From: Elusimicrobiota bacterium
Lineage (GTDB): Bacteria > Elusimicrobiota > Elusimicrobia > UBA1565 > UBA9628
Direction: 5' to 3'
Assembly (NCBI GenBank): GCA_026388095.1
Contig: JAPLKL010000018.1
Location: 38,388 to 102,387, forward strand
DNA length: 64,000 nt
Part shown: positions 8,368-28,205 of the stretch, in pieces
Layout of the letters: the number at the start of each line of letters is the position of its first letter
How positions within the stretch are numbered: position 1 is the stretch's first letter
Notes under the pieces: model-generated
The model's input: the letters and a program-made list of their open reading frames with translations, nothing else
The model's database searches: none
What the model was told of the DNA's origin: nothing
Program-made: the position numbers and the translations under genes

Positions 8368-10268
8368 AGCGCTGCCTCCAATATCTCCGCCAGGTCCTTG
8401 ACCGCGAGGTTCTCCAGGCTCTGGTCCTTCACGCCGGTCTCCAGCATGCTCAGGCAATACGGACAGGAGGTGGCGATGACTGAAGCCTTGGTCTGGTGGA
8501 GCTGGCGCACCCGCTCATGGTTGACGCGCGGGCCTTTCTCCTCCACCCAGAAGAGGCCTCCCCCGGCGCCGCAGCAGAAGCCGGTCTCGCGGCAACGCGA
8601 GGGCTCCACGGCCTGCGCGCCGCCCACCGCTGCCAGGAGTTCCCGCGCCGGGTCGTACACGCCGTTGGCGCGGCCCAGATAGCAAGAATCGTGGATAACG
8701 ACCCGCGTGTCGGGCCCGGACTTGGGCTTGAGCTTGCCCTGCAGGACCAGGCCCTGGAGCAGTCGGGTGTGGTGCAGGACCTCGAAGCTCCCGCCGAAGT
8801 CGGGGTATTCGTTCTTGAAGGTGTTGAAGCAGTGGGGGCAAGGGGTGAGGATCTTCTTGACCTTGAGCTCGTTGAGCAGGGCCGTGTTCTGCTCGACCAA
8901 GGACTGGCCCAAAGCCTCCTCGCCGAGGCGCCGCGCGGTCTCGCCGCAGCAGAGCTCCTCCTCTCCCAGCACGGCGAACGAGACTCCGGCCTTCTTGAGC
9001 AAGGAGACCAGGCTGCGGCTGACCTTGACGGCCCGGTCGTCGAGACTGGCCGCGCAGCCGAAGTAGAGCAGGTACTCGGCCGGAGCCTGGCGCCAGAGGG
9101 GCAGGTCCAGCCCCTTGGCCCACTCCGCGCGCTTGGCCGCGCCGAGGCCCCAGGGGTTGGAGTTGTTCTCCAGGCCCTTGAAAGCGCGCCTGACCTCGGC
9201 CGGGAAGCGCGCCTGCATGAGCACCTCGCTGCGCCGCAGGGAGTTGATGCGCTGCACGTGGGAGATGCTCACCGGGCAGGCCTGCTCGCAGGCCTGGCAG
9301 GTGGTGCAGGCCCAGAACTCCTCCGGCGTGACCGAGGCGGGCGCCAACTCCTCGGGCTCCCCGCCCTTGCCGTTGATGAGGCGGCCGGCCTCGCGCTTGA
9401 GGCAGTCCTTCTGCGCGGTGATGATCTCGCGCGGAGCGAGCTTCTTGCCCACGCCGTTGGCCGGGCAGGCCTCGTTGCAGCGGCCGCACTCGGTGCAGCT
9501 GTAAAGGTCCAGGCCGTCCTTCCCAGTGAGCTGATCGACATGGGGCGTGCCGAAGACGTCTACTTTCTCGTCGGCGAGGTCGAGCTTGGTGAGCCTGCCG
9601 CCGCGATGCAGCGGCCGTAGGTAAACGTTGAAGGCGGAGGTGAGGATGTGCATGTGCTTGCCCGTGGGCAGGTAGGCCAAGAAGACCAGGATGCCTAAGC
9701 AGTGGACCCAGAGAGCGGCGTGGCCGGCCGCGGCCGGGGCCTTGCCGCTCAAAGCGGCGGAGAAGAGCATGTCGCTGAGCATGAGGGTGAGGATCATGAG
9801 CAGGACGAAGAGGGCCTCGCCGGTGTTGCGCAGGCGCTTGACGCGCTGGATGTAGCGGCGGAAAAGGGCCAAGAGGATCATGAGCGTGACCGCGATGTTG
9901 GCGCCGTCCTTGACCACGCCGTAGGCCCGGCCGAGCAGCGCGTCGGGACCGAGGAAGGGGAGGTGGAACCCGAAGCCCCCGCCCAAAGCCATGCCGAAGA
10001 GGGTGAGGGCCCGCAGGAGCAAAGCGCAGAAGCCCCAGAATATGAGGGCGTGCATGAGGCCGGGCACGGGGTCCTGGAAGAGCTTCTTCTGGCCGAGGAA
10101 GATGGTCAGGAACTCCTGGATGCGCCGGGGGTGGTCCGCGACCGGATCAGGGACCGGGGCGAGAGCCTGGAGGAGCCTGGTCTTTCGGTAGACCGCGCGG
10201 CTGAACACTGCCAGAGAGATAGGAAGGGCGATGCCTACGACGACCGCGTCGGCTGCGTGCCAATGCAT
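8364..10268 (-). CDS. membrane-bound Fe-S oxidoreductase, HdrD/GlpC/DsrK-like (candidate ETF:quinone oxidoreductase of syntroph type)
   Basis: Hydrophobic multi-helix N-terminal third. Two ferredoxin motifs, [12 protein letters not shown] and [12 protein letters not shown]. Two CCG-type Cys-rich domains (LCCGET...CPHC and FCCGAGGG...CPYC). Confidence 0.85.
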
Positions 10269-13238: not shown

Positions 13239-14006
13239 TCACCATTTTGGTTGACGTTTTTCCAGGAAGGCCTTCATGCCCTCGGCCCCCTCGTTGCCGA
13301 ACAAGGAGCCGAAGTCCTCCGATTCCATCGCGCAGCCCGCGTCGAAGGAGCCCAGCAGTCCCTTGCGCACCAGGCGCTTGACCAGGCGCACGGCCTTGGG
13401 GCCCTTGGCCGCGATCTTCTTGGCCAGGCCCAGAGCCTCGGGCATGAGCTGCTCGGGCGCCACCACCTTCTGCACCAGACCCAGGCGCAGGGCGTCCTCC
13501 GCCCCGACCAGTTCGCCAGTGAGCAGGAGGTAAAGGGCGTTGCCCGCGCCCACCAGCCGAGGCAGGCGCTGGGTGCCGGCATAGCCGGGGGTGAGGCCCA
13601 GGTTCACTTCGGGCTGGCCGAACTTGGCGAAGGTGCTGGCGATGCGGAAGTCGCAGGCCATGGCCAGCTCGCAGCCGCCGCCCAAAGCGAAGCCGTTGAC
13701 GGCCGCGATCACGGGCACCAGAAACTCCTCCAGACTGCGGAAGGTGCGCTGCCCGACGCGCGAGAACTCGGAGCCGGCCCGGGAGTCCTTGTCGGCCATC
13801 TCCGCGATGTCCGCGCCCGCCACGAAGGCCTTGCCCGCGCCGGTGAGGACCAGCGCGCGCAGGCCGCTGTCCTGGGACAGGCCCGCCAGGAGGTCGTCGA
13901 GCTCCTGGAAGAAGCGCGTGTTGAGGGCGTTCATGGCCTGGGGCCGGCTGATGGTCACGACTGCGACGGCTTCCTGCTTCTCGACCTTGAGTATCTCGTA
14001 GTTCAT
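13239..14006 (-). CDS. enoyl-CoA hydratase (crotonase)
   Basis: C-terminal 255 aa of track ORF 13239..14747, from MNYEILKVEKQEAVAVVTISRPQAMNALN. Contains GAGKAFVAGADIAEM and NGFALGGGCELAMACD. The ATG at 14006 overlaps the etfA stop. Confidence 0.9.
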   Translation of the reverse strand: MNYEILKVEKQEAVAVVTISRPQAMNALNTRFFQELDDLLAGLSQDSGLRALVLTGAGKAFVAGADIAEMADKDSRAGSEFSRVGQRTFRSLEEFLVPVIAAVNGFALGGGCELAMACDFRIASTFAKFGQPEVNLGLTPGYAGTQRLPRLVGAGNALYLLLTGELVGAEDALRLGLVQKVVAPEQLMPEALGLAKKIAAKGPKAVRLVKRLVRKGLLGSFDAGCAMESEDFGSLFGNEGAEGMKAFLEKRQPKW

Positions 14007-14974
14007 TTTTTCAGAGCCTTGGCCAGCTCCTCCTTGAGTACGGGCAAGACCTTGAAGAGGTCGCCCACGATGCAGAAGTCCGCCTTCTCCATGATGGCTG
14101 CGTCCTTGTCCTTGTTGACGGCGATGATGAACTTGGAGGAGCCCATGCCCGCGAAATGCTGGATGGCTCCCGAGATGCCGCAGGCGATGTAGAGCACGGG
14201 CGAGACCACCTTGCCGGTCTGCCCCACCTGATGCTTGTAGGGGATCCAGCCGGCGTCCACGGCGGCGCGCGAGGCGCCCACGGCCCCGCGCAGGGTCCGG
14301 GCCAGGTCCTCGATGAGCTTGAAGCCCTCCGGCCCGCCCACGCCGCGGCCGCCGGACACGATGACCTCGGCCTCGGTCACATCCATGACGCCTTGCGCGG
14401 CCTGGATGGCCTTGACGACCTGGGCGCGGATGCGCATGTCCTCCGGCGAGATGGCGACCACTTCCGCGGCCTGCTCGCGCTCCGCCGCGGCCGCAAATAC
14501 GTTGGGCCTCAGCGAGACCACCTTGACCGGGGCGCAGAGCTCCGTCACGGCCAGCAGCTTGCTGGAATAGACCGGCCTCACCACGGTCAGAGCCGGGCTG
14601 TCCCACTGGATCGCGGTCACGTCCGTGGCCAGGGCGGCGTCGAGCCGGGCGGCCAGGCGCGCGGCCAGGTCCCGGCCCAAAGCCGTGGCGGACACGACGT
14701 ACAGGTCCGCCCCCAGCCGGCTGCCCGCCTCGGCGACCGCGCCGCAATAGGCCTCGCTGGAATAGGCGAGGAAGCTCTCCCCGGCCGCGGCGAAGACCTT
14801 CGTGAAGCCCAGGCGGCCCAGCCCCGCGGCCGCCGACGCGTCCGCGCCGCAGACCACCGCGGCCAGGGGGACCTGCAGCTTCTCCGCGAGCCTGAGGCCC
14901 ACCGCCGCGGCCTCCCGGCTGGCCTTGCGGACCGCGCCGCCGGCCGTCTCCACCCAGACGATTATGCCTGCCAT
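14003..14974 (-). CDS. etfA: electron transfer flavoprotein alpha subunit
   Basis: C-terminal FAD-binding signature VGQTGKVVSPVLYIACGISGAIQHFAGM...IIAVNKD. Confidence 0.9.
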   Translation of the reverse strand: MAGIIVWVETAGGAVRKASREAAAVGLRLAEKLQVPLAAVVCGADASAAAGLGRLGFTKVFAAAGESFLAYSSEAYCGAVAEAGSRLGADLYVVSATALGRDLAARLAARLDAALATDVTAIQWDSPALTVVRPVYSSKLLAVTELCAPVKVVSLRPNVFAAAAEREQAAEVVAISPEDMRIRAQVVKAIQAAQGVMDVTEAEVIVSGGRGVGGPEGFKLIEDLARTLRGAVGASRAAVDAGWIPYKHQVGQTGKVVSPVLYIACGISGAIQHFAGMGSSKFIIAVNKDKDAAIMEKADFCIVGDLFKVLPVLKEELAKALKK

Positions 14975-14975
14975 G

Positions 14976-15749
14976 TCAGATCACCTTCGCCACGTGGCTG
15001 AGCCATTCGAGGCCCTGGGCCGTGACCGCCGCCGGCTCGCCCTCCGCACGCAAGCCCTTGGGGCGCGGCGGCGGGGGCTGGAGCGCGAGCACCCGACTCT
15101 TGGGCGGCCCCAGGTCCACCCCGAGCTCGGCCAGCGTCACCTTCTTGATCTCCTTGTTCTTGGAACGCTTGATGGCGAGGAGGGTCGGATAGCGGGGCTC
15201 GTTGAGGCCCTTGGAGCAGGATAAGGCCGCGGGCAGACTGGCCTCGATCTCCAAGGTCGCGCCCTCCACCTCGCGCTGCACCAGGAGCTTGTCTTCGCAG
15301 AGCTCGATCTTGGCGGCGCCCAGCACGTGGGGGATGTCGAGATACTGCGCCACGGCCGCGGCCAGGGCGTCTTCCTGCGTGTCGATCATCTCCCGGCCGC
15401 AGAGTATCAAGGAAGGGTTGAAGCCCTTGATGGCGGCGGCGAGGATGCGGCCCTGCGTGACCACGTCCGCCTGCCAGGCGGCCGGCTCGCAGATCCAGAC
15501 CGCGCGCTCCAGGCCCATGGCCAGGGCGCTGCGCAAGGCGGCCTCGGCGCGCGCCGGGCCGATGCAGAAGCCCACGGCCGACCCGCCAGCCTTCTCCGTG
15601 ATGCGCAGGGCCTCCTCGACCGCGTACTCGTCGTAGGGATTGAGGATGAACTTGATGTCCGTCTCCAGGATGGCGCCGGGCCGGGCCGGGTCCGGCTTGA
15701 CTGCGGCCTCGGTGTCCGGGACCTGCCTGAGTATGACCGCGACGTCCAT
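14976..15749 (-). CDS. etfB: electron transfer flavoprotein beta subunit (appears non-bifurcating type)
   Basis: MDVAVILRQVPDTEA...ILNPYDEYAVEEALRI. The GADTLAT-type motif seen in the EtfB at 20366 is absent here (QADVVTQ instead). Confidence 0.9.
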   Translation of the reverse strand: MDVAVILRQVPDTEAAVKPDPARPGAILETDIKFILNPYDEYAVEEALRITEKAGGSAVGFCIGPARAEAALRSALAMGLERAVWICEPAAWQADVVTQGRILAAAIKGFNPSLILCGREMIDTQEDALAAAVAQYLDIPHVLGAAKIELCEDKLLVQREVEGATLEIEASLPAALSCSKGLNEPRYPTLLAIKRSKNKEIKKVTLAELGVDLGPPKSRVLALQPPPPRPKGLRAEGEPAAVTAQGLEWLSHVAKVI

Positions 15750-15753
15750 GGCC

Positions 15754-16902
15754 TTAGGCTCCCAGCACGCTGCGGGCGATGACGAGCCTCTGGATCTCGG
15801 AGGTGCCCTCGTAGATCTCGGTGATGCGCTGGTCCCGGTAGAGCCGCTCCACCTTGTAATCCTTCATGAAGCCGTAGCCGCCGTGGATCTGCACGGCTTT
15901 ATGGCAGACGCGGTGCGCCATCTCCGAGGCGAAGAGCTTGAGCATGGCGGCCTCCTTGGTGAAGCGCGGTTTGCCCGCGTCCTTCATCCAGGCCACCCGG
16001 TAGAGCATGGTCTTGGCCAACTCGACATCGGTGGCCATGTCCGCGAGCATGAACTGCAGGACCTCCAGTTCCGCGATGGGCTTGCCGAACTGGACCCTCT
16101 CCTTGGCGTAGCGCACCGCCTCGTCCAGGGCCGCCTCCGCGATGCCCACGGCCTGGGAGGCGATGCCGATGCGGCCGCCGTCCAAGGTGGCCAGGGCGAC
16201 CTTGAGGCCCTTGCCCTCCTCGCCCAGAAGCGCGTCGGCCGGGACCCGGCAGTCATCGAACACCATCTCGGTCGTGCTCGAGGTGCGGATGCCCATCTTG
16301 TTCTCGTGCTTGCCGACCGAAAAGCCCGGCGCGTCCTTGGTGAACAGGAAGGCGTTTATGCCGGGCTTGCCTCCCGCCGGCACGTCGCTGCGGGTGAAGA
16401 CGATGATGACGTCGGCGATGCCGCCGTTGGTGGTGAAGTTCTTGGTGCCGTTGATGACGAAGCCCCCGTCCTTGCGCACGGCCGTGGCCCTCATGGAGGC
16501 GGGGTCGCTGCCCGCGCCGGCCTCGGTCAGGGAGAAGCAGCCGATCCACTCGCCGCTGGTGAGCTTGGGCAGGTACTTCTTCTTCTGGGCCTCGGTGCCG
16601 AAGTGCTCGACGGCGTCGTTGACCAAGGAGTTCTGCACCGAGACCGCCACGGCCGCGCCCGCGTCGGCCTTGCTGAACTCCACCATGGAGCCGGCGTAGG
16701 CCACGGCGCCCAAAGCCGAGCCCCCGTGCTCCTCGGCCACGGTCATTCCCAGGTAGCCCAGTTCCCCCAGCTCCTTGAGGGCCTTGAGGTTGACCTCGCC
16801 CTTCTCGTCGAGCTCGGCCACGGCCGGCGCCAGCTTGTCCTGCGCGAAGCGGCGCGCCCCGTCGATCGCCATCCGTTGCTCTGCACTGAATTCAAAATCC
16901 AT
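15754..16902 (-). CDS. acyl-CoA dehydrogenase (butyryl-CoA dehydrogenase type)
   Basis: FSLTEAGAGSDPASM...IHGGYGFMKDYKVERLYRDQRITEIYEGTSEIQRLVIA. Confidence 0.9.
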   Translation of the reverse strand: MDFEFSAEQRMAIDGARRFAQDKLAPAVAELDEKGEVNLKALKELGELGYLGMTVAEEHGGSALGAVAYAGSMVEFSKADAGAAVAVSVQNSLVNDAVEHFGTEAQKKKYLPKLTSGEWIGCFSLTEAGAGSDPASMRATAVRKDGGFVINGTKNFTTNGGIADVIIVFTRSDVPAGGKPGINAFLFTKDAPGFSVGKHENKMGIRTSSTTEMVFDDCRVPADALLGEEGKGLKVALATLDGGRIGIASQAVGIAEAALDEAVRYAKERVQFGKPIAELEVLQFMLADMATDVELAKTMLYRVAWMKDAGKPRFTKEAAMLKLFASEMAHRVCHKAVQIHGGYGFMKDYKVERLYRDQRITEIYEGTSEIQRLVIARSVLGA

Positions 16903-16961: not shown

Positions 16962-19187
16962 TCATGCCGCCTGAGCGGCGGGCGCGTCGACGGGCGCGTA
17001 CTCGCGCGCGGCCTCCCGGCCGTAGAGCACGCGCAGCGCGCCCTTGGCCAGGGCCGCCATCTCGTTCTCCCCGGGATAGACGGTGACGCCGCAGCCCAGG
17101 CCGCGCAGGTAGCCCGTGACGCGCTCCACGAGCAGCCCGGAGCGGGCCATGCCCCCGGTCAGGATGACGCGGTCCAGCTTCTGCCCGTCGAAAGCGGGGA
17201 CCAAAGCGGCCGCGGCCTTGGCGATCTGATAGGCCATGGCGTCCAAGACCTCCGCTGCCTCCGCGTCCCCGGCCAGTATGCGCCTCTCGACCTCGCGCAG
17301 GTCCGCAGTGCCCAGCAGATCGATGAGTCCGCCCGCGCCCTTGATGAGCTTGCGGACTTCCGCGAAGGTGTAGCGTCCCGAGAAGAACAGCTCCGCGAAT
17401 TGCGCCTGCGGCAGGGAGCCGCAGCGCTCCGGGCTGAAGGGGCCCTCGCCGTCGAGGCCGTTGTTGGCGTCGATGTAGCGGCCCTGGAAATGGGCTCCGA
17501 TGGAGATGCCTCCGCCCAGGTGGCAGACGACCACGTTGATGCGCTCGTAGAAGGTCTCGTTCTCCTGCGCGTAGCGCCGTGCCGAGGCGATCTGGTTGAG
17601 GGCGTGGCTGATCACCTTGCGCCTGATGGCCTTGATGCCGGTGATCTTCACCCGCGCGGGCGTCTCGTCGACCACCACGGGGTCCACGATGAAGGCCGGC
17701 TTGCCGCCCAAAGCGGCGAGCTCGTGCGCGATTAGCCCGCCCAGGTTCGAGGCGTGGTCCCCATAGGTGCCGGCGCGCAGGTCGGCCAGCACGGCCTCGC
17801 CCACCCGGTAGGTGCCGTGCGGGATGGGGCGCAGCAGGCCGCCGCGGCCGCAGAAGGCGTCTATGTCGCCGGGGCCGAGCTTGGCGTCCCGCAGGGCGCG
17901 CAGCACGGCCTCCTTGCGCATGGCGTACTGCTCGGTGATCTTGCGGCCGACGAAGGGGGCCAGTTCCGACTGGGTGTGCTGCAGCTCCCGGCTGGAGGTC
18001 TCCACATCTCCTTCATAGACGGCGATCTTGGTCGAGGTCGAGCCCGGGTTGATGGCCAGGACGCGGTGGCGGCGGAAGAAAGTATCCTTGGGGGTCCGGG
18101 CCCAGCGGCCGTAGCGGTGCAGGCGCAGCACCGAGGCCTTGACCGCCAAGCGCACGTCCTCCGGGCTGCAGTCGATGGCCAGGTCCACGCCCCGGAAACC
18201 GACGCCGAAGATGACCTGGAACTTCTTGGCCGTGGGGTACCGTGAGGAATAGAGGTCGTAGAGGAGGTTGCCGGTCTCCAGGTTGGGGCAGATGATCACG
18301 TTCGTGCCGCCCGTGAGGCCCGCCTCCCCATAGAGCTCGGCGGAGCGCCGCGAGATGGCCGCGCTGATCTTCACCTCGCCCGCGATGCGGATGCCGGCGT
18401 AGCGCCGCCCGATGCGCGCGCGCTCGGCCAGCAGGCCCGGCACCAAGGCCATGGCCTGGCGGATCATGACCGGGGAAGGGCCTTCGTCCGAGCCCCGGTG
18501 CGAATAGGACACCACGGCCCCGTGGATCTCGGGCAGCACGTCCTCGGGGATGAGGTCGCGCGCCACGGCGCAGATGCCCACGGCCACGTCGGCGAGCTTC
18601 TCCGGGGTCATGGTGGCGTTGACGCCCACGTCCCCGAAGACCACGATGTTGTGGGGGTAGTAGCCCTCGGGATGCTCGTCGGGAAGGACGAACACGCCCG
18701 CCTCGCAGACCACCTTCCTTTTAGAGAGGACCTCGAGCATGGGGCGGAAGAAATCCTTGGCGCCGTGCCGGGCTCCGCCCACCACCATATCGGCGTGCCC
18801 CCGGTGCACGGCGTAGACGCCGAAGAGCCCCGGCTCCGAGACCGAGCGCTTGGCGGCGGCCAGGTCCGCCGCTTGGCTGCCGCAGCGCCGGTTCTTGAGG
18901 CAGTCGTCCGCGAACTCCGAAACCAACGCAGGGTTCCGGGAGATGTCCACGAAGGAGGACGCCGACAAGGCGAACTCCACTCGGGTGGACTCCAGGTGGG
19001 CCAGGGACTGCGCCGCCGCGGCGCGCACCGATTCCTCCGAGGCCAGGAGCACCGGCTTGATGAACCGCGCCAGATAGCAGACGGCCTCGAGCACGCGCGG
19101 GTCGTCCGGCTCGGTGAACACGACGGTGGGGCGGTCCTTCTGGAGAGAGAGGATGTGCGTGTCGAACGACTCCTCTATCCTGAACAT
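16962..19187 (-). CDS. fused phosphate butyryl/acetyltransferase (N) - butyrate kinase (C)
   Basis: 741-aa C-terminal part of track ORF 16962..20237, from MFRIEESFDTHIL. The N half resembles the PTA/PTB family. The C half begins RVLAINPGSTSTKIAVYEG and contains CHLGGGISIGAH and ILTGGMA, typical of butyrate/acetate kinases. The upstream 350 aa of the ORF is antisense to the dehydrogenase at 19230. Confidence 0.8.
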   Translation of the reverse strand: MFRIEESFDTHILSLQKDRPTVVFTEPDDPRVLEAVCYLARFIKPVLLASEESVRAAAAQSLAHLESTRVEFALSASSFVDISRNPALVSEFADDCLKNRRCGSQAADLAAAKRSVSEPGLFGVYAVHRGHADMVVGGARHGAKDFFRPMLEVLSKRKVVCEAGVFVLPDEHPEGYYPHNIVVFGDVGVNATMTPEKLADVAVGICAVARDLIPEDVLPEIHGAVVSYSHRGSDEGPSPVMIRQAMALVPGLLAERARIGRRYAGIRIAGEVKISAAISRRSAELYGEAGLTGGTNVIICPNLETGNLLYDLYSSRYPTAKKFQVIFGVGFRGVDLAIDCSPEDVRLAVKASVLRLHRYGRWARTPKDTFFRRHRVLAINPGSTSTKIAVYEGDVETSSRELQHTQSELAPFVGRKITEQYAMRKEAVLRALRDAKLGPGDIDAFCGRGGLLRPIPHGTYRVGEAVLADLRAGTYGDHASNLGGLIAHELAALGGKPAFIVDPVVVDETPARVKITGIKAIRRKVISHALNQIASARRYAQENETFYERINVVVCHLGGGISIGAHFQGRYIDANNGLDGEGPFSPERCGSLPQAQFAELFFSGRYTFAEVRKLIKGAGGLIDLLGTADLREVERRILAGDAEAAEVLDAMAYQIAKAAAALVPAFDGQKLDRVILTGGMARSGLLVERVTGYLRGLGCGVTVYPGENEMAALAKGALRVLYGREAAREYAPVDAPAAQAA

Positions 19188-19229
19188 GACGGTTTGTATT
19201 ATAACCTTTATTTTATTAAAGTAAGCCCT

Positions 19230-20363
19230 ATGGACTTCGATTTCTCGAACCCCGTCAAGATCGTGCAGCGCACCGCGCGGGACTTCGCGCGCCAGGCCGT
19301 GGCGCCTCTGGTCCCGGAGATGGAGGGATCCGGAAGATTCCCCAAGCCCCTCATCAAGCAGATGGCCGAGGTGGGCCTGCTCGGCCTGGTCACCCCGCGC
19401 CGCTACGGCGGCTCGGAGCTGGGCTTTCTGGCCCGCACCGTGGCCGTGGCCGAGATCAGCAAGGTCTCCGCGGCCGTGGGCATCGCCCTGCAGGTGCACC
19501 ACATGCAGGCCGCGGCCATCAACGACTGGGGCACCAAGGCTCAGAAGGAGAAGCACCTGCCCCGCCTGTGCCGGGGCGATTTCCTCGGGACCTGCGCGGT
19601 GACCGAGCCCACCGGCGGCTCCGACCTCCTCGGGATGGCCAGCACGGCGGCCCGCGAGCGCGGCGGCTATCTCCTCAACGGCAGCAAGTGCTACATCACC
19701 AACGCCCACCTCTGCGCCTCCCCGCTGGTCATCGCCAAGACCGGCGAGGGCTCGCGGGGCCTGAGCGCCTTCATCATCGCGAAGGGGACTCCGGGCTTCT
19801 CCCTGGGCCGCGAGGAGCGCAAGATGGGACTGCTCGGCGCCGACACCGGCTCGTTCTTCTTCAAGAACTGCCGCGTGGCGGAAGCCGACCTGGTGGGCGA
19901 CGAGGGCGAAGGCATGAAGGTGGCTCTCAAGACCATCGGCGAGGTGGGCCGGCCGGGCATGGCCGCCATCTCCCTGGGGATACTGGAGGCCGCCTTCGAC
20001 GAGGCGGTGAAGTTCTCCAAGGGCCGCACCCTCTACGGCAAGCCCATCGCCGGCCTGCAGGCCATCCAGTGGAGCGTGGCCGAGATCCTGACCGACCTGG
20101 AGACGGCCCGGCTGGTCTGCTACCGAGCCTCCTGGCTCAAGGACCAGGGGCGCGACTGCGCCGCGCCCATGACCATGGCCAAGCTCTACACCACCGAGGC
20201 CGCCCTGCGCGCCAGCCGCAAGGCCCTGGAGATCCACGGCGGCTGCGGCACCATGCTGGACTACCCGGTGCAGCGCTACTTCCGCGACGCCATGGTCTGC
20301 ATCTCGGCCGGCGGCACCACCGAGGTCGGCAAGATCGTGCTCTCTCGCGCCGCGCTCAACTAG
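19230..20363 (+). CDS. acyl-CoA dehydrogenase
   Basis: MDFDFSNPVKIVQRTARDFARQ...AVTEPTGGSDLLGM...IHGGCGTMLDYPVQRYFRDAMVCISAGGTTEVGKIVLS. Start at the ATG at 19230. Confidence 0.9.
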   Translation: MDFDFSNPVKIVQRTARDFARQAVAPLVPEMEGSGRFPKPLIKQMAEVGLLGLVTPRRYGGSELGFLARTVAVAEISKVSAAVGIALQVHHMQAAAINDWGTKAQKEKHLPRLCRGDFLGTCAVTEPTGGSDLLGMASTAARERGGYLLNGSKCYITNAHLCASPLVIAKTGEGSRGLSAFIIAKGTPGFSLGREERKMGLLGADTGSFFFKNCRVAEADLVGDEGEGMKVALKTIGEVGRPGMAAISLGILEAAFDEAVKFSKGRTLYGKPIAGLQAIQWSVAEILTDLETARLVCYRASWLKDQGRDCAAPMTMAKLYTTEAALRASRKALEIHGGCGTMLDYPVQRYFRDAMVCISAGGTTEVGKIVLSRAALN

Positions 20364-20365
20364 CC

Positions 20366-21160
20366 ATGAACATCATCGTCTGCATCAAGCCCGTGCCGGA
20401 CCCTTCCCGCTTCGACAAGCTTCGCCTCGACCCGGACACCATGCTCCTGCGCCGCGACGAGGTGCCCTCGGTCATCAACCCCCTGGACCGCAACGCCCTG
20501 GAGGCCGCGGCCGCGCTCAAGGCCCGTCACAAAGGCAGAGTCAGCGCGCTGTGCATGGCCGCGCCGGGCGCGGCGGAGCAGCTCCAGGAGGCCTTGGCCC
20601 TGGGCTGCGACCGGGCCTGCCTCCTGACCGACGCGGCTTTCGCCGGCGCCGATACCTTGGCCACGGCCCGCGTCCTGGCCGCGGCCGTGCGCAAGCTCGG
20701 AGCCTTCGATCTCATCCTCTGCGGCGCCTACACCGCCGACGGCAGCACGGGCCAGGTGGGCCCCCAACTGGCCGAGCTCCTGGGCATCCCGGACCTGACC
20801 TTCGCCCGCTCTTTGGAGGTCAAGAAGCGGAAGCTGCACGCGCACTGCCTGCGCGAGGACGGCCAAGCCGTGTGCGAGACGGACCTCCCGGCTCTAGTCA
20901 CCTTGGACCAGTCGGCCAACGTCCCGCGCTTGACCCCGCTCTCCGGCCTGCGGCCGGCCGCGGGCAGGAAGATCTCGACCTGGTCGGCCCGCGACCTGCG
21001 CCTCTCCCCCTCCTTCGTGGGGCTGGCAGGCTCGCCCACCCGCATGCTCAACATCTTCACCCCGCCGGTCAAGCGCAAGGGCGAGATGCTCCAGGGCTCG
21101 GCCGACGAGGCCGCGGCCCAGCTTTTGGAGAGGCTGCGGCGGGACAAGGCGCTATCATGA
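20366..21160 (+). CDS. etfB: electron transfer flavoprotein beta subunit (bifurcating-like motifs)
   Basis: MNIIVCIKPVPDP...INPLDRNALEAAAALK...AFAGADTLATARVL...CGAYTADGSTGQVGPQLAELLGIP...GLAGSPTRM. Starts 3 nt after the dehydrogenase stop. Confidence 0.9.
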   Translation: MNIIVCIKPVPDPSRFDKLRLDPDTMLLRRDEVPSVINPLDRNALEAAAALKARHKGRVSALCMAAPGAAEQLQEALALGCDRACLLTDAAFAGADTLATARVLAAAVRKLGAFDLILCGAYTADGSTGQVGPQLAELLGIPDLTFARSLEVKKRKLHAHCLREDGQAVCETDLPALVTLDQSANVPRLTPLSGLRPAAGRKISTWSARDLRLSPSFVGLAGSPTRMLNIFTPPVKRKGEMLQGSADEAAAQLLERLRRDKALS

Positions 21161-23619
21161 AACCCTCTCTTTGGATCTGCGTCCCGCATCAGAACGGCCG
21201 GCCCGACCCCGTCGGGCTGGAGCTGCTGGGCAAGGGCCGCGCGCTGGCCGAGAGCGCCGGCATGGTCCTGGAAGCCGTGGTCCTGGGCGCCGGAGCCGCG
21301 CCAGCGGCCAAGGCCCTCCTGGAGCACGGACCGTCCACGGTCTACGTCCTCGACGACCCGCGCCTGGAGACAGGCGGCACTCCGGTCCGGGCCTATGCGC
21401 TGGCCGAGCTGGCCAAGAGGCGCAAGCCCGAGGTCCTGCTCCTGTCCGCGCTGCGCGAGGATTCCGCCCTGGCCTCCCGCGCGGCGGCGCGCCTGGGCAC
21501 GGGCCTCAGCGCCCATTGCGTGGACCTCAAATTCGACGGCTCCAGCCTCATCCAGACCGTGCCCGGCTTCGGCGGCAACGTCATGGCCAACATCGTCTGC
21601 CCTGACCGGCGGCCGCAGATGGCGACCGTGGCGCCGGGAGTGTTCGCCCCGGTCCCCGGCCGGGCCCCGGGCGCCAAGGTCGTTCGGGAGAAGGTCTCTT
21701 TGCCGCGCGGCCTGCGCGGGGTACGGACCCTGTCGGTGCGCGCCGAGTCGGACGGCTCCGGCCCGGCCGCGCTCAAGAGCGCCCGCGTGGTGGTGGCCGG
21801 CGGGCACGGCGTGGGCTCGCGCAAGGACTGGGCCCTGCTCGAGGACCTGGCCCGCGCGCTGGGCGGCGCGGTGGGCGCGACCCGGCCGCCCGTGGATGAA
21901 GGCTGGGCCAAGACGCGGCAGATGATCGGCGCCAGCGGCATCTCCATCAAGCCCCGCCTCTACATCGGCGCGGGAATCTCCGGGATGATGCACCACACCG
22001 TGGGCATCCAGGGCGCCAAGACCATCGTGGCCGTCAACCGCGACCCCAAGGCCCCCATCTTCCAGACCGCGGACTACGGCATCGTGGGAGACCTCAAGGA
22101 GGTCATCCCGGCCCTGCTCCAGCGTCTGCGCACCGGCAAAGGCCTGGCCGCCAAGATCAAGCCCGCGGGCTGCGCGCGCACCTCCCAGTCGTACCGGGAG
22201 AGTCTGAGCAAGATGCGTCCCAACATCCACAAGTTCGGCCGCTTGATCACGGACGTGGCCTGCGATCCCCTGACCAAGCGCACCGTGGAAGGCCACGCCC
22301 AGCTCTTCGACGCGGCCCGCGACCCCAAGCATCAGGACCTCTTCACCACGACCTCCCACCTGACGGGCAAGCGCGTCTCGCGCTACCTGTCCTTGCTGCA
22401 GTCGCCCGAGGACGTCTTCGCCTTGAGCCGCATGAAGCGCGCGGCCTTCAACCTGACCGGCACCTGCACCGGAGGCCGCTGCGTGGGCGGAGCGGCCCTC
22501 AACGCCATGTGGTCCGTCACCTGGGACCTCGACCAGGCGCAGGGCACCGATTATCATCAGCGGCTGCGCCGCTGGCTGCGCGACGCCCAGGAGCGCGACA
22601 TCACCGTGGCCGGCGCGCTCACCGACCCCAAAGGCAACCGCAAGCTCCCCCCCTCCCGCCAGGCCGACCCGGACTCCTATCTGCGCGTCGTGGCCCGGCG
22701 CCAGGGCGGCGTGGTGGTGCGCGGGGCCAAGGTCATGATCTGCGGCGTGGCCGCGGCCCAGGAGATCTTCGTGATGCCGGGCACGCGCCTGAAGCGCTCG
22801 GAGGCCGACTACGCGGTGAGCTTCGTCATCCCGCGCGACGTGCCGGGCCTGACCATCGTGGAGGCGCGGCGGCCGTCCGACACGCGCGAGCAGGAGGAGG
22901 GCTTCGACAACCCCGTGGCCCGCGGCGGCATCACCCAGGCCTATCTCTTCTTCGAGGACGTGTTCGTGCCGAAGGAGCGCATCTTCCTCCACGGCGAGTA
23001 CGCCGCGGCCGAGGACGCGGTCACGCGCTTCACTTTGCCCTACCGCTCCGCCATCGGCGGCTGCGTGGCCGGGCAGGGCGACGTGATGGTCGGGGCGGCC
23101 ATCCTCATGGCCCGGGCCAACGGCCTGCAGGAGAAGGTGTTCCGCGACAAGCTGGTGCGCATGCTGGTCAACAACGAGACCACCTTCGGGGTGGGCCTGG
23201 CCGCGGCCGTGCTGGGGCGCAAGCATCCCTCGGGGAGCTGGCTGCCCGACTCCCTGATGGCCAACATCAACAAGGTCCACGTGGCCACCCTGCCCTACGA
23301 GACCAAGCGCCTGACCCAGGAGATCGCGGGCGGCATCGCGGAGACCGGCTGCATGCCCTCGGCCAAGGATTTCCTTGACGAGCGCTATGGGCACCTCATC
23401 CGCAAGTACCTCAAGGCGCACGCCCCGGCCGAGACCCGGGCCCGCATCGCGCGCCTCATCGAGTGGCTGACCATCGGCGCGGGCGTGCCGGGCTGCATGC
23501 ACGGCGGCGGCTCGCCCGACGGGGCGCGGCTCTCCGTCTTCGCCGACGCCAAGCTCAAGGAGATGGCGGACCTGGCCAAGCGCCTGGGCGGCATCTCCGA
23601 CATCTCCCTGGAGGGCTGA
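21157..23619 (+). CDS. fusion protein: EtfA (about aa 1-325) + AbfD/HpaB-family (4-hydroxybutyryl-CoA dehydratase-like) domain (about aa 342-820)
   Basis: ATG at 21157 overlaps the etfB stop (ATGA). The EtfA part has RPPVDEGWAKTRQMIGASGISIKPRLYIGAGISGMMHHTVG...IVAVNRD. After a linker (TGKGLAAKIKPAGCAR) the frame continues without a stop into GALTDPKGNRKLPPSRQADPDSYLRVVARRQGGVVVRGAK...EADYAVSFVIPRD...GCMHGGGSPDGARL, which resembles AbfD. Confidence 0.8.
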   Translation: MKPSLWICVPHQNGRPDPVGLELLGKGRALAESAGMVLEAVVLGAGAAPAAKALLEHGPSTVYVLDDPRLETGGTPVRAYALAELAKRRKPEVLLLSALREDSALASRAAARLGTGLSAHCVDLKFDGSSLIQTVPGFGGNVMANIVCPDRRPQMATVAPGVFAPVPGRAPGAKVVREKVSLPRGLRGVRTLSVRAESDGSGPAALKSARVVVAGGHGVGSRKDWALLEDLARALGGAVGATRPPVDEGWAKTRQMIGASGISIKPRLYIGAGISGMMHHTVGIQGAKTIVAVNRDPKAPIFQTADYGIVGDLKEVIPALLQRLRTGKGLAAKIKPAGCARTSQSYRESLSKMRPNIHKFGRLITDVACDPLTKRTVEGHAQLFDAARDPKHQDLFTTTSHLTGKRVSRYLSLLQSPEDVFALSRMKRAAFNLTGTCTGGRCVGGAALNAMWSVTWDLDQAQGTDYHQRLRRWLRDAQERDITVAGALTDPKGNRKLPPSRQADPDSYLRVVARRQGGVVVRGAKVMICGVAAAQEIFVMPGTRLKRSEADYAVSFVIPRDVPGLTIVEARRPSDTREQEEGFDNPVARGGITQAYLFFEDVFVPKERIFLHGEYAAAEDAVTRFTLPYRSAIGGCVAGQGDVMVGAAILMARANGLQEKVFRDKLVRMLVNNETTFGVGLAAAVLGRKHPSGSWLPDSLMANINKVHVATLPYETKRLTQEIAGGIAETGCMPSAKDFLDERYGHLIRKYLKAHAPAETRARIARLIEWLTIGAGVPGCMHGGGSPDGARLSVFADAKLKEMADLAKRLGGISDISLEG

Positions 23620-24192
23620 GTGGAATTCCACGAGACGGTCCGCGCGCGGCAGTCCGTGCGGGAGTTCAAGCCCGACCCGGTCCCGTCCGAGGTCCTGCTG
23701 CGCCTGCTGGAGGCCTTCCGGGCCGCGCCCTCCTGGGCCAATGTCCAGCCCTGGGAGCTGATCCTGGTCCAGGACCCGGAGCTCAGGCGCCGGCTGCAGC
23801 AGACCCTCTCGCCGGGCAACCCCGCCACCAAGGCCGCAGTCGAGGCGCCGGTGCTGGTCTGCGCGGTAGGCATCGCGGGGCGCTCCGGCTGGTACAAGGG
23901 CAAGCCCGTGACCGCGCGCAACGACGAGTGGATGCTCTTCGACCTGGGCATCGCCTGCGAGCACCTGGCTTTGGCCGCGGCCGCCGAGGGGCTGGGCACC
24001 GTGCATGCGGGCTACTTCGACTTCGCCAAGGCCGGGGAGATCCTCGGGGTCCCGGTCGGCCGCAGCGTGGTGGAGCTCATCCCTCTAGGCTACCCCGCGC
24101 GCCTGCCCAGGCGGGTGGAGCGCAAGCCTCTAGCCGAGTTCGTGTCCTTGGACCGCCACGGCAATCCCTTCCCCTTGCCCGCAGCGAAATGA
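23620..24192 (+). CDS. nitroreductase-family flavoprotein
   Basis: GTG start directly after the preceding TGA, with GGAGGG 6 nt upstream. RARQSVREFKPDPVPSEVLLRLLEAFRAAPSWANVQPWELILV. Confidence 0.8.
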   Translation: MEFHETVRARQSVREFKPDPVPSEVLLRLLEAFRAAPSWANVQPWELILVQDPELRRRLQQTLSPGNPATKAAVEAPVLVCAVGIAGRSGWYKGKPVTARNDEWMLFDLGIACEHLALAAAAEGLGTVHAGYFDFAKAGEILGVPVGRSVVELIPLGYPARLPRRVERKPLAEFVSLDRHGNPFPLPAAK

Positions 24193-24689
24193 AGCGGGCC
24201 TGCACCAAGAAAGGCGACGCGGGCTTCACGCGCGATTTCTCCGGCCGGCGCCTGGCCAAAGACGACCTGCGCATCTTGGCGCAGGGCAAGTTCGACGCTC
24301 TGCAGTCCGCCATCGACCTCGTGCTCCTCGACGCCCGCCGGAGGGACAAGGCCGCGCTCCAGGAGGTCCAGAAGAAACTCTGGCAAAGCGCGGGCGAGCT
24401 CGCCCGCGCCTCGCGCGCCTGCGTGCCCTGGCCCGTGACCCAGGACGACGTGGAGGCTCTCGAGAGGCACCTGGCGGGCCTGGGAGCTACCCCCCGCAAG
24501 TTCGTGCGCTTCGACACTCTGCGCGCCGTCCATTACAACGAGTGCCGGATCCGGTGCCGGGAACTGGAATCTTCCTGCACCAGGCTCCTGCGGGCCAAGA
24601 AGCTGCGGCCGGAGGTGTACAGCTACCTCAACCGGCTCTCCAGCCTGTTCTTCATGCTGGCCTGCCGGGCCTCGCGCGCCAAATCCTGA
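24189..24689 (+). CDS. ATP:cob(I)alamin adenosyltransferase, PduO type
   Basis: C-terminal 166 aa of track ORF 23463..24689. TKKGDAGFT N-terminal motif and YLNRLSSLFFMLAC near the C terminus. ATGA overlap with the nitroreductase gene. Confidence 0.8.
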   Translation: MKRACTKKGDAGFTRDFSGRRLAKDDLRILAQGKFDALQSAIDLVLLDARRRDKAALQEVQKKLWQSAGELARASRACVPWPVTQDDVEALERHLAGLGATPRKFVRFDTLRAVHYNECRIRCRELESSCTRLLRAKKLRPEVYSYLNRLSSLFFMLACRASRAKS

Positions 24690-25633
24690 TGCCGGCCCCG
24701 GTCTTCACCATAGACTGCCAGTACCTCCATCCCCGCTATGCGGCCTCCTATCTGCTCGTGGAGGGCGGCCGGGCCCTTTTCGTGGACAACAACACGGCGC
24801 GCGCCGTCCCGCTGCTGTTGGAAAGACTCGGTCAGGAAGGACTGACCCCGGAGCAGGTGGACTACGCCATCGTCACGCACGCCCATCTCGACCACGCCGC
24901 GGGCAGCCGGGCACTGGTCGACGCCTGCCCGAATGCGACGCTTCTTGCTCACCATAAGGCCGCAGGGCACATCATCGATCCTACACGCCTGATCGCCAGC
25001 GCGAAGAAAGTCTATGGAGAAAAGGCATTCGATGAGCTATACGGGGCCGTAGCAGGCGTGCCTGAGAGCCGGGTCCGCTCCATGCAAGACGGAGAAGTCC
25101 TTCGTTGGGGCGGCCGCGAGCTCACTTTTCTCCATACGCGAGGGCATGCCAACCATCATGTCTGCGTCTATGATCCGGCCTCGGGAGGAATATTCACCGG
25201 CGACGCCTTCGGGTTGGCGTATCCTGACCTGCAGAAGGGAGGATTGTTTGTTTTTCCCTCTACCAGCCCCACAGGATTCCAGCCGGCAGAGGCGCGGGCC
25301 AGCATAGAGCGCATCCTCAAGACCGGCGCCCAGCGGGCTTTCCTGCCTCATTTCGGGGAGCTTGGCGAGCTGCCGGCCGCTGCAGAGCAGCTATTCGAAC
25401 ACTTGGATTTCTCGGCCCGGCTCCTGGAGGATGCAGTCCATTCAGGCGTGAATGATGCGGAACTGGCCGGCTTTTGCGAGGCTGCCCTGCGGGAGCATTT
25501 CCGCTCTGCCCTGGAACGCTTGGGCATTGCTCAGGCCAAGACCTGGGACATGCTCAAGCTCGACATCGAGCTCAATGCCGCGGGCATCGCCCACGCGGCG
25601 CGCCGGAAACGCTCTTCCGCGCCCGGACACTGA
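24689..25633 (+). CDS. MBL-fold metallo-hydrolase
   Basis: IVTHAHLDHAAGS (HxHxDH) motif, with later HTRGHANHH and GDAF. The ATG shares 1 nt with the preceding stop. Confidence 0.8.
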   Translation: MPAPVFTIDCQYLHPRYAASYLLVEGGRALFVDNNTARAVPLLLERLGQEGLTPEQVDYAIVTHAHLDHAAGSRALVDACPNATLLAHHKAAGHIIDPTRLIASAKKVYGEKAFDELYGAVAGVPESRVRSMQDGEVLRWGGRELTFLHTRGHANHHVCVYDPASGGIFTGDAFGLAYPDLQKGGLFVFPSTSPTGFQPAEARASIERILKTGAQRAFLPHFGELGELPAAAEQLFEHLDFSARLLEDAVHSGVNDAELAGFCEAALREHFRSALERLGIAQAKTWDMLKLDIELNAAGIAHAARRKRSSAPGH

Positions 25634-26646: not shown

Positions 26647-28205
26647 ATCCAGGCCCCCGAGGGGGCCTGGATTCGGCTATAATACCAAAACGCCGCCGGA
26701 GTGAGCGTCCGGATCGGGTGGGATTCTTCAGGTTGACGGCGTGGAGGCAGAGCCGTGGCTACGCGGAGTGGAAATCATCCGCCGGAGGAACGTCGACTGC
26801 TTCGTATAAGTCACTTCGCGGGTCGAGCTGACACTCCTCCCCCGGCGGCCCGCACATAGCCTCGACTAATTTAGTCCGCGCGGGCATCGTCTTCGGGAAT
26901 TCCGTCGGAAGGCCAAGGTGCTCCAACAGCCGGACCAACTCCTGGTCGTTCATGATGACCGCCACAGGCACCATGGTCGCGGCGCAGCGCGGGCAGACCA
27001 ACGGGTCAACCTCGAAGACCCGGTTCAGGCAGGCGGCCCAGGAACGTACGCTCTTGCTGACCGCTTCCTTGGCCCCCTCCACTTTCTTTCGCAGACGAGC
27101 CTTGGCCGTGCCCCGGCTCGCCTCGGCCACCAGCGACGCCCGCAGCGGCGAGTTCGGCCCCAAAGCCCCGTAGTAGCGCAGAAGATTCCTGCGCGCCGGC
27201 GGGATCAGCAGACCCCAGCGCCTAAGGAATTCCACCGGCTCGAACCGCAAAGCCAAGGTCAGACCATTCTTAGGCTCGGTGCGGTAGACGACCCGGTCAT
27301 TCTTCGGCTGATACGACAACCGCTTAGGCGCGAGCGCCGGCTTGGCGCAATAGAAAAGGACGCGCTCCAGCCCCTCACGATCCCCGCCCGGCACGAACAC
27401 CTTGGCGTGCAGGGAGAAACCCGAGTTCTGCCAGGACAGCATCTCTTTAGCCATATCATCGGGGATGGCGCCCAGCCTGCGCAAGCGCCTGAGAATCTTG
27501 TGGCGCAAAGACTCGGTCATAAGCTCGATGTCCCGCTCTGACGGCTCGGCAGCGGCGTGGAACCTGAGCTTCGAGCCCAACAAGCCCGGCTCAAAGCTGA
27601 AGCGCCCCTCCGAGACCACCGCGTGCACATGCGGATGCAGATTCAGCGAACGGCCCGCGCGCTGGATGAAGTGAAGCTGGGCCGCGGCCGTGCCCGCGCA
27701 TCTCCTGCGCAGGAGACGCTCTATCTCACGGGCCAGGATGCGGCTTATCTCGCCCGGCAAAGCGGCGCTCTGGTTGACGTACCACCTCAGCCGCTTGGGA
27801 ATGGTCAAGACATATTGCCGATAGCCCACCGCGGGCAGAAGCCGGTCCGATGCGTCGGCCATGATGATCGCCGCGCGCTTGGCGTCGCAGTGCGGGCAGA
27901 AGCCCCGGCGCTTGCAGGAGAAAGCGACGAACAGGTCCTCCCCGCACTGCGGGCACCGGAAGCGCATTACGCCGAAGCGCGCGATGCCGCACTCCAAGTA
28001 CTTCTGCAAGTGCTGGAGAACGCCCACAGGCGGCCGATGACGAAGATCCTGAGGCCGCCGCAGGGCCAGCGCGAAGTCCTCGATATGGTCGAGCACCAGC
28101 CTATGCAGCGGCCCCCTGGCCGTGTCTCGCGACCGGTAGGACCCAGCCCCCGTTGCCCCCACCTACAATATACGAACGAGGGCCCGATTTGTTCCCTGGC
28201 CAGGG
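26647..28205 (-). mobile_element. IS91-family (rolling-circle, HUH) insertion sequence; boundaries approximate
   Basis: A single transposase gene. A 12-bp-stem hairpin lies about 90 bp beyond its 3' end (26647-26672). The palindrome CCCTGGCCAGGG, preceded by GTTC, lies just upstream of its 5' end (28191-28205). True ends were not determined. Confidence 0.4.
26759..28162 (-). CDS. IS91-family transposase
   Basis: N-terminal zinc-binding domain (YLECGIARFGVMRFRCPQCGEDLFVAFSCKRRGFCPHC). HUH-type motif LNLHPHVHAVVSEG. C-terminal RYYGAL and CPRC. Confidence 0.85.
   Translation of the reverse strand: MGATGAGSYRSRDTARGPLHRLVLDHIEDFALALRRPQDLRHRPPVGVLQHLQKYLECGIARFGVMRFRCPQCGEDLFVAFSCKRRGFCPHCDAKRAAIIMADASDRLLPAVGYRQYVLTIPKRLRWYVNQSAALPGEISRILAREIERLLRRRCAGTAAAQLHFIQRAGRSLNLHPHVHAVVSEGRFSFEPGLLGSKLRFHAAAEPSERDIELMTESLRHKILRRLRRLGAIPDDMAKEMLSWQNSGFSLHAKVFVPGGDREGLERVLFYCAKPALAPKRLSYQPKNDRVVYRTEPKNGLTLALRFEPVEFLRRWGLLIPPARRNLLRYYGALGPNSPLRASLVAEASRGTAKARLRKKVEGAKEAVSKSVRSWAACLNRVFEVDPLVCPRCAATMVPVAVIMNDQELVRLLEHLGLPTEFPKTMPARTKLVEAMCGPPGEECQLDPRSDLYEAVDVPPADDFHSA

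Follow-up and report, generated by a model that had tools for sequence, protein, structure and literature searches.

An electron transfer flavoprotein alpha subunit fused to an AbfD-like flavoenzyme domain in a conserved bacterial three-gene module

Introduction

Flavin-based electron bifurcation, and the transfer of electrons out of acyl-CoA dehydrogenases (ACADs), are best understood from electron transfer flavoprotein (ETF) complexes. A locus in a 64,000-nucleotide (nt) stretch of Elusimicrobiota DNA (assembly GCA_026388095.1, contig JAPLKL010000018.1, positions 38,388 to 102,387; hereafter the window, in whose numbering positions are given) raises the question of whether such a complex can be joined covalently to a second flavoenzyme, and what reaction it would then serve. 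One gene of this locus encodes an ETF alpha subunit (EtfA) that continues in frame into a domain of the HpaB fold related to 4-hydroxybutyryl-CoA dehydratase (AbfD). An initial annotation, made from the DNA sequence alone, had read four adjacent genes as one enzyme complex comprising a conventional ACAD, a bifurcating-like EtfB, the EtfA::AbfD-family fusion and a nitroreductase. The analysis described here confirms the fusion, reduces the module to three genes and points to a chemistry different from that of AbfD.

The fusion gene and its distribution

The window has a GC content of about 68%. Inspection of its open reading frames (ORFs) and sequence placed four consecutive plus-strand ORFs at the coordinates expected, and the tight spacing initially described for them was borne out: ACAD1 and EtfB1 are separated by a 2-nt gap (CC), the TGA of EtfB1 and the ATG of the fusion gene share an ATGA, and the nitroreductase begins with a GTG at 23620 directly after the TGA of the fusion. 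The features of this segment are as follows (aa, amino acids).

19230-20363, + strand: ACAD1, 377 aa; stop codon TAG
20366-21160, + strand: EtfB1, ETF small (beta) subunit, 264 aa; Pfam ETF, 1.2e-37
21157-23619, + strand: EtfA::AbfD-like fusion gene, 820 aa in a single open frame
21157-22134, + strand: EtfA part of the fusion, residues 1-326, domain I and FAD-binding domain II; Pfam ETF and ETF_alpha
22135-22176 (about), + strand: linker of the fusion, residues ~327-340, TGKGLAAKIKPAGCA region, between the EtfA and AbfD homologies
22177-23619, + strand: predicted AbfD-like (HpaB-fold) FAD/[4Fe-4S] domain, residues 341-820; Pfam HpaB_N and HpaB
23620-24192, + strand: nitroreductase-family protein, 190 aa; Pfam Nitroreductase, 5.6e-27

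Pfam assigns ETF (residues 6-180, 4.7e-35) and ETF_alpha (206-285, 7.9e-28) to the N-terminal part of the 820-aa protein, followed by HpaB_N (342-611, 2e-77) and HpaB (620-810, 5.6e-42). Residues 4-326 can be aligned with the EtfA subunits of solved structures, the EtfA homology ending at about 326-328, and residues 341-813 align with residues 3-489 of the dehydratase of Clostridium aminobutyricum (PDB 1U8V). These borders leave a linker of about 12-16 aa (nt ~22135-22176), consistent with the 16 aa proposed at first.

A lost stop codon or a chimeric join, arising in sequencing or assembly, could be imagined as the origin of such a gene, and the distribution of the architecture bears directly on this explanation. 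In a search space of 5.8 billion proteins, clustered at 90% identity, at least 101 clusters of 815-877 aa contain all four Pfam domains and share 64-100% identity with the window fusion. They are drawn from NCBI, JGI, ENA and Logan assemblies, that is, from different studies and assemblers, and the hosts include Elusimicrobia, Acidobacteria/Vicinamibacteria, Candidatus Eisenbacteria and unclassified bacteria. The nearest relative (89% identity) belongs to a metagenome-assembled genome of a groundwater Elusimicrobia. In a scan of species-representative genomes, both halves were found in one continuous ORF at 14 bacterial loci. The linker is of fixed length, with columns that are almost free of gaps and a partly conserved sequence in an alignment of 102 family members, and the GC content at third codon positions (GC3) is uniform at 0.93-0.96 across ACAD1, EtfB1, both halves of the fusion, the linker and the nitroreductase. 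Nothing was found in favor of an artefact; the few split entries (P0104 and P0115) are themselves the broken ones, with gaps lying within otherwise identical synteny. The probability of an artefact is therefore negligible. The fusion is real and has been conserved in several phyla, as the initial annotation had supposed for the single case then at hand, and the combination of ETF_alpha with HpaB is a widespread architecture.

P0115 and P0104 had been candidates for stand-alone bacterial homologues of the C-terminal domain and were rejected, because both gene calls proved to be frameshifted or truncated fusions with the same neighboring genes. It is also noted that two long ENA contigs (L017, 9475-10001; L019, 6905-8001) contain an interrupted fusion gene, whose N-terminal ETF part is absent or lies in another frame, with the remaining synteny intact. 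These interruptions are probably assembly frameshifts, which yield spurious "stand-alone" HpaB-domain proteins in the databases.

No paper describing an EtfA-AbfD/HpaB fusion was found in the literature searched, and no solved structure covers both halves, a Foldseek search against the PDB having re-found AbfD and EtfA separately. Both results agree with the initial claim that no EtfA fused to such a flavoenzyme has been described. Database names for the fusion are generic or, where assigned by JGI pipelines, 4-hydroxybutyryl-CoA dehydratase.

Composition of the module across genomes

ACAD1 and EtfB1 orthologues, with 64-89% and 50-89% identity to the respective window proteins, are located directly 5' of the fusion in every bacterial locus with enough upstream sequence, and the coupling proposed from the window between the fusion and its upstream ACAD and EtfB is thus conserved. 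The three genes stand as an operon by themselves, amid unrelated genes, in two long Acidobacteria-like contigs. The nitroreductase, for which there is no NCBIfam equivalog, follows the fusion only in seven Elusimicrobia loci, those closest to the window (L001-L006 and L008); it is absent from seven other bacterial loci (L007, L010, L011, L014, L016, L017 and L018) and from the archaeal loci described below. Its inclusion in the module, as first suggested, is not sustained by this pattern. The nitroreductase is a lineage-specific passenger, and the conserved core consists of the three genes for ACAD1, EtfB1 and EtfA::AbfD-like.

NCBIfam likewise offers no equivalog for ACAD1, EtfB1 or the fusion. 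The models of acryloyl-CoA reductase AcrABC from Clostridium propionicum (NF042970-NF042972) are nearest, giving the best or near-best match for all three, yet all scores fall far below the equivalog cut-offs (357 vs 640, 190 vs 475 and 213 vs 600 bits), and AcrA has no AbfD-like domain. AcrABC is an ACAD-ETF complex that is not known to bifurcate. The EtfB orthologue of a Candidatus Eisenbacteria locus (L007, 6841-7818) contains three Gly-, Thr-, Arg- and Lys-rich insertions of 24, 19 and about 19 aa.

The AbfD-like domain and its active site

The closest solved relatives of the C-terminal domain are AbfD structures. With phmmer against the PDB, the domain matches 1u8v (3e-96) and 6vjr (6e-94), the identity to AbfD being about 38%, and the Foldseek TM score is 0.82 when normalised to 1u8v. 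To compare the active sites, 1U8V numbering was rebuilt from the alignment and checked against known residues, and conservation was evaluated over 102 fusion proteins. The cysteines that hold the [4Fe-4S] cluster in AbfD, C99, C103 and C299, are kept as C437, C442 and C636, and R90 is kept as well (101-102/102 in each case). The Fe-S/FAD scaffold of the domain is thus predicted to be retained. The cluster loop is one residue longer than in AbfD, being Cx4C instead of CxxxC.

The remainder of the active site is replaced in a uniform manner. H292 of AbfD becomes Y629, with Tyr in 101 of the 102 proteins, and T190, E257, Y296 and K300 become C529, Q594, I633 and V637, while the pair E455-S456 becomes G779-C780 (101-102/102). 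With C732, a further invariant cysteine, residues C529 and C780 make up three added invariant cysteines in the active-site region. Canonical AbfD proteins recovered by the same search keep the full R-C-C-T-E-H-Y-C-K-E-S-A set. In AbfD, H292 is the fourth ligand of the cluster, and T190, E257, Y296 and E455 are needed for dehydratase activity (bioRxiv 10.1101/2020.02.05.935528). Because all five are invariantly replaced, the AbfD-like domain, judged from its residues, is not a 4-hydroxybutyryl-CoA dehydratase. The AbfD-type chemistry on 4-hydroxybutyryl- or vinylacetyl-CoA that had been envisaged for this locus is contradicted by the same replacements throughout the 102 members.

The domain forms a clade of its own, with at most 40% identity to canonical AbfD and 63-74% identity between fused and unfused members. 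In a library clustered at 50% identity, the fusions fall into one cluster (P0092), next to which stand an unfused type (P0121, 63%) and a sister (P0122, 45%); beyond P0122 lies the generic AbfD superfamily at 40% identity or less. By these identities the AbfD-like subfamily is compact. Across the Fe-S-bearing superfamily (P0125-P0267), active sites are very diverse between the 50%-identity clusters: many keep the Cys triad and H292 and vary at E257, Y296, K300 and E455, and few are fully canonical. Many genes annotated as 4-hydroxybutyryl-CoA dehydratase therefore probably encode other enzymes.

The sister P0122 occurs in Synergistaceae (L021, 2038-6462) directly 3' of three 2-oxoacid:ferredoxin oxidoreductase genes. 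No ETF or ACAD genes are among its neighbors at this locus, and the ETF link is therefore specific to the clade of the fusions and P0121. At 45% identity, P0122 has the Y292 and I296 replacements and lacks the extra cysteines.

The Pfam and NCBI domain names, which are those of HpaB, could suggest an O2-dependent flavin monooxygenase for which the fused ETF supplies reduced flavin in place of a separate flavin reductase. Acidobacteria, which are among the host lineages, include aerobes. However, the domain scores 327 bits against AbfD and at most 108 bits against true HpaB, the NCBIfam HpaB model gives 128 against a cut-off of 480, and the three Fe-S cysteines, invariant here, are missing from HpaB enzymes. 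We consider a monooxygenase very improbable.

A different explanation starts from the observation that the acid/base residues are all lost and the cluster cysteines kept. The domain might have given up substrate conversion and now act as an FAD/[4Fe-4S] electron relay within the fusion, taking the place of ferredoxin or of an EtfX/FixX-type partner and linking the ETF and ACAD1 to an external donor or acceptor. The added C529, C732 and C780 fit such a role, since one of them could provide an all-Cys cluster without an open iron site. On the other hand, some 480 residues are maintained at 64-90% identity, including the regions of the substrate channel and R90, which is more than a relay needs. 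The acyl-CoA-making 2-oxoacid:ferredoxin oxidoreductase that precedes the Synergistaceae sister also suggests that this branch of the superfamily acts on an acyl-CoA. A pure relay function is, on balance, unlikely.

Unfused counterparts in archaea

The AbfD-like subfamily also occurs without the fusion. At three archaeal loci (Thermoplasmatales SM1-50, archaeon LFW-68_2 and a Logan contig), it is a separate protein of 485 aa that shares 66-68% identity with the fused domain and has the same signature residues. The archaeal cluster comprises an ACAD, an AMP-forming acyl-CoA ligase, EtfB, EtfA, a DUF6125 protein and the AbfD-like gene. The initial proposal that the ETF and the AbfD-like enzyme belong together is backed by these loci, in which the unfused gene lies beside etfB-etfA. 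Of the computational evidence for their cooperation, this association, seen with and without the fusion, is the strongest.

The DUF6125 gene between etfA and the AbfD-like gene (L012, 8953-9483; L013, 2702-3241; L020, 7467-7997) encodes a cysteine-rich protein of 176-179 aa, which might form an additional subunit where the AbfD-like protein is unfused; no papers on DUF6125 were found in the literature searched. The archaeal clusters adjoin a set of genes for a B12-dependent acyl-CoA mutase (L012, 2377-3807; L020, 1-2741), consisting of a methylmalonyl-CoA-mutase-family large subunit, a B12-binding subunit, MeaB and a CobA-type adenosyltransferase. The module in the window has comparable neighbors, namely an IcmF mutase and a PduO-type adenosyltransferase.

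The ETF subunits and ACAD1

Both ETF subunits resemble bifurcating ETFs most closely. The EtfA part scores 197-221 bits against bifurcating EtfA structures and about 105-115 bits against non-bifurcating ones; EtfB1 scores 147-201 bits against CarD, the EtfB of Clostridioides difficile, and the Acidaminococcus fermentans, Thermotoga maritima and LctB proteins, and at most 79 bits against non-bifurcating ETF-beta. At the level of single residues, the two flavin sites have fared differently. In the site of the electron-transfer flavin, the Arg is kept as R243 in a region that aligns with SRAxVD/TRPGIE of the solved bifurcating EtfAs, and R243 and its surrounding motifs are invariant. In the site of the bifurcating flavin, TRPxFGG of all five solved bifurcating ETFs is changed to TVPGFGG, the Arg being replaced by Val135 (nt 21559-21561) in 102 of 102 sequences. 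This Arg contacts N5 of the bifurcating FAD and has been described as strictly conserved (R136 in C. difficile; PMC5691135); its counterpart in Rpa is R165.

The small-subunit motifs, RxGV and the G..SPTxV anchor, were defined according to PMC10734219. EtfB1 keeps the GSPT anchor, whereas RxGV is changed to RDEV, with Glu, Asp, Gln or Lys in place of the Gly in all bacterial orthologues. GRQAIDGDT is changed to GAYTADGST, the bacterial pattern being G(A/G)YS(A/L)DGST. The designation of the ETF as bifurcating-like is thus half right: it stands for the overall similarity, and presumably the descent, of both subunits, and does not extend to the bifurcating-flavin site, which is remodelled by the change of the Arg to Val135 and the loss of the RxGV Gly.

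ACAD1 contains the three ACAD domains of Pfam (PF02771, PF02770 and PF00441) and aligns end to end with short-chain ACADs and with butyryl-CoA dehydrogenase (Bcd), the best PDB matches being 5lnx (3e-90) and C. difficile Bcd (5ol2_C, 1e-80). Its description as a conventional ACAD does not hold at the catalytic residue. The Glu of the YEG motif is replaced by Gly361 (nt 20310-20312, CISAGGTTEVGK), and all 15 ACAD1 orthologues that stand beside fusions have CISAGGTTE[IV]GK instead of EIYEGTSEIQR. The second ACAD of the window and the archaeal ACAD retain EIYEGTSE. An invariant Glu in a (G/S)E(V/A/T)GR motif, beside a 1-aa insertion on helix G, might serve ACAD1 as an alternative catalytic base. 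This Glu lies two positions from what we take to be the base of IVD, near the IVD/LCAD position and not at it.

These features of the ETF and ACAD1 also bear on the model with which the analysis began, namely a genuine 4-hydroxybutyryl-CoA dehydratase/vinylacetyl-CoA isomerase that works with a bifurcating ETF and a normal butyryl-CoA dehydrogenase, forming a channel from 4-hydroxybutyryl-CoA through crotonyl-CoA to butyryl-CoA with NADH-driven reduction of ferredoxin. The model is in line with the best solved relatives (AbfD, 1u8v and 6vjr, and the bifurcating Bcd and Car ETF complexes), with the butyrate-pathway neighborhood in the window and with the label that JGI pipelines give to the family. 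Against it stand the replacement of H292, T190, E257, Y296 and E455 and the Cx4C loop in the AbfD-like domain, and the loss of the catalytic Glu in ACAD1. The Arg that is Val in the entire family is needed for ferredoxin reduction by T. maritima EtfABCX, where it is R140 (PMC10734219). Such a dehydratase-based channel is consequently quite improbable.

Proposed mechanism

We propose that ACAD1, EtfB1 and the fusion would form a single acyl-CoA oxidoreductase complex built around the ETF, which would serve as an electron shuttle between two ACAD-fold partners; our confidence in this electron-shuttle model is evenly balanced. The AbfD-like domain would be tethered by the short linker of fixed length to the C-terminus of the mobile domain II of EtfA. 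The electron-transfer FAD of domain II could then swing between free ACAD1, docked like Bcd in Bcd-EtfAB, and the tethered FAD/[4Fe-4S] centre, so that single electrons would pass via the ETF between the ACAD1 flavin and the FAD/[4Fe-4S] centre of the AbfD-like domain. A short-chain acyl-CoA redox step at ACAD1 would in this way be linked to redox chemistry of a radical or Fe-S-assisted kind at the AbfD-like site. When Bcd-EtfAB adopts the D-state, Bcd is contacted by the flexible C-terminus of EtfA (PMC5691135). The tethered domain is placed as a second docking partner because of this contact between the EtfA C-terminus and the dehydrogenase and because AbfD has the ACAD fold. A covalent union of a related kind is reported for Fusobacterium nucleatum, in which an ACAD-type enzyme incorporates domain II of EtfA (Bystrom and Wolthers 2024, as cited in PMC12042025).

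Several observations weigh against the electron-shuttle model. Neither redox partner has a recognisable catalytic base, and one or both may not turn over acyl-CoA. The cofactor content of EtfB1 also appears uncertain, because non-bifurcating ETFs also retain the Arg that is lost here, and removal of its charge is reported to impair FAD/AMP binding in them (PMC8958531). The archaeal ETF beside the unfused gene belongs to a different lineage, with about 30-35% identity, and keeps this Arg, and the archaeal ACAD is canonical; the peculiarities of ACAD1 and Val135 are therefore not obligatory for the AbfD-like enzyme. Finally, an AF2 model of the fusion, computed from a 43-sequence alignment, was only of moderate quality, with a pLDDT of 76.5 and a pTM of 0.56, and gave no usable inter-domain geometry; around the active-site residues C636, C732 and C780 (segments 634-643 and 713-786) the pLDDT is below 50.

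In a bifurcating or confurcating version of the machine, which we regard as rather unlikely, the low-potential branch would end at the tethered FAD/[4Fe-4S] radical enzyme and not at free ferredoxin. At ACAD1, enoyl-CoA reduction or acyl-CoA oxidation, being exergonic, would directly drive a one-electron (ketyl/radical) step on a second acyl-CoA at the AbfD-like site that is unfavorable by itself, and the remodelled flavin site (Arg to Val, Gly to Glu) could represent an adaptation to the new acceptor.

Comparison with known ETF and AbfD systems

The module was compared with the described systems that come closest to it. With Bcd-EtfAB and CarCDE (C. difficile 5OL2, Acetobacterium woodii 6FAH and A. 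fermentans 4KPU), it shares the gene order ACAD-etfB-etfA, the closest ETF subunits, the conserved site of the electron-transfer flavin and the GSPT anchor. It differs from them in adding a second ACAD-fold domain, with predicted FAD and Fe-S centres, at the C-terminus of EtfA, in the changes at the bifurcating-flavin Arg, the RxGV Gly and the ACAD Glu, and in having no N-terminal ferredoxin domain. From AbfD (C. aminobutyricum 1U8V and Nitrosopumilus maritimus 6VJR), the full-length fold and the residues C99, C103, C299 and R90 are conserved; the AbfD-like clade is set apart by the active-site replacements given above, the Cx4C loop, and its fusion or clustering with an ETF.

The multidomain butyryl-CoA dehydrogenase of F. 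nucleatum is similar in the covalent union of an ETF flavin domain with an ACAD fold and in the hard-wired transfer from flavin to flavin. As far as that enzyme is described in PMC12042025, the dehydrogenase contains no part of EtfA other than domain II, whereas the present module has a complete EtfA with an EtfB partner, an AbfD-family Fe-S flavoenzyme and a separate ACAD. Known ETF fusions also include the single-chain EtfB-EtfA of a thermoacidophilic archaeon (PMC12042025). This protein and CarE/LctC, with the N-terminal ferredoxin domain on EtfA, demonstrate that ETF subunits tolerate covalent redox modules, but the additions are small modules or the partner subunit, and none is a substrate-type flavoenzyme of 480 aa at the C-terminus of EtfA.

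Genome neighborhood of the module

The translationally coupled string of genes extends past 24192, and a group of minus-strand genes diverges from the operon on its 5' side. The flanking features are as follows.

24189-24689, + strand: PduO-type cob(I)alamin adenosyltransferase, 166 aa; Pfam Cob_adeno_trans, 1.8e-27; accessory
24689-25633, + strand: metallo-beta-lactamase-fold protein, 314 aa; Pfam Lactamase_B, 2.8e-23; accessory
19188-19229, no strand: divergent intergenic spacer, 42 bp, AT-rich, between Ptb::Buk (-) and ACAD1 (+)
16962-19187, - strand: Ptb::Buk fusion, 741 aa; PTA_PTB at residues 16-312 and a butyrate/acetate kinase-like C-terminal half
15754-16902, - strand: canonical ACAD (the second ACAD)
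14976-15749, - strand: EtfB2
14003-14974, - strand: EtfA2
8364-10268, - strand: CCG/4Fe-4S Fe-S oxidoreductase of the kind that accepts electrons from ETF
4993-8514, - strand: IcmF-type fused acyl-CoA mutase, 1173 aa; B12-binding, MeaB and mutase parts

The nitroreductase and adenosyltransferase genes overlap by ATGA, and the adenosyltransferase and metallo-beta-lactamase-fold genes by TGATG. The last two genes are common only to the window and its closest relative (L001), and the GC3 of the metallo-beta-lactamase-fold gene is lower, at 0.72. A flavodiiron identity, as in the F. nucleatum chain, was considered for this gene and rejected; it has no flavodoxin domain and is conserved only in L001. 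An IS91-family transposase (Y2_Tnp and Zn_Tnp_IS91; 26759-28162, - strand) lies just 3' of the operon.

The spacer at 19188-19229 is likely a candidate shared promoter region, a role assigned from its position between divergent genes. A consensus sigma-70 scan of these 42 bp gave no site, and promoter and terminator scans around the operon returned nothing useful.

The Ptb::Buk gene diverges from the ACAD1 operon, and its counterparts have 70-89% identity in the Elusimicrobia loci L001-L003 and L006. Further minus-strand neighbors encode a crotonase, a 3-hydroxyacyl-CoA dehydrogenase (Hbd) and a thiolase, and the minus-strand genes together constitute a complete (iso)butyrate-type, C4 acyl-CoA neighborhood. 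A classification of EtfA2/EtfB2 as non-bifurcating was dropped, as the scores are ambiguous (207 vs 176 bits). The setting in the window and the mutase neighbors in archaea give a hint of short-chain acyl-CoA substrates for the module, which is weak because the Acidobacteria-like operons have no such neighbors.

Implications

The module adds to the ETF complexes a partner class that had not been seen, an AbfD-family Fe-S flavoenzyme joined to the mobile flavin domain. Three rules regarded as strictly conserved are broken together in it, namely the ETF Arg, the ACAD Glu, and the His and acid/base set of AbfD, which makes the family a natural experiment on the roles of these residues. The lineages that carry the system are abundant and uncultured Elusimicrobia, Acidobacteria, Eisenbacteria and Thermoplasmatota of groundwater, soil and sediment. 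4-Hydroxybutyryl-CoA dehydratase, the name assigned by annotation pipelines, is the marker enzyme for 4-hydroxybutyrate cycles of CO2 fixation, and the use of this name for the present family could inflate predictions of carbon fixation from metagenomes. As far as can be read from the proteins themselves, an undescribed ETF-dependent acyl-CoA redox reaction probably takes place in these uncultured lineages.

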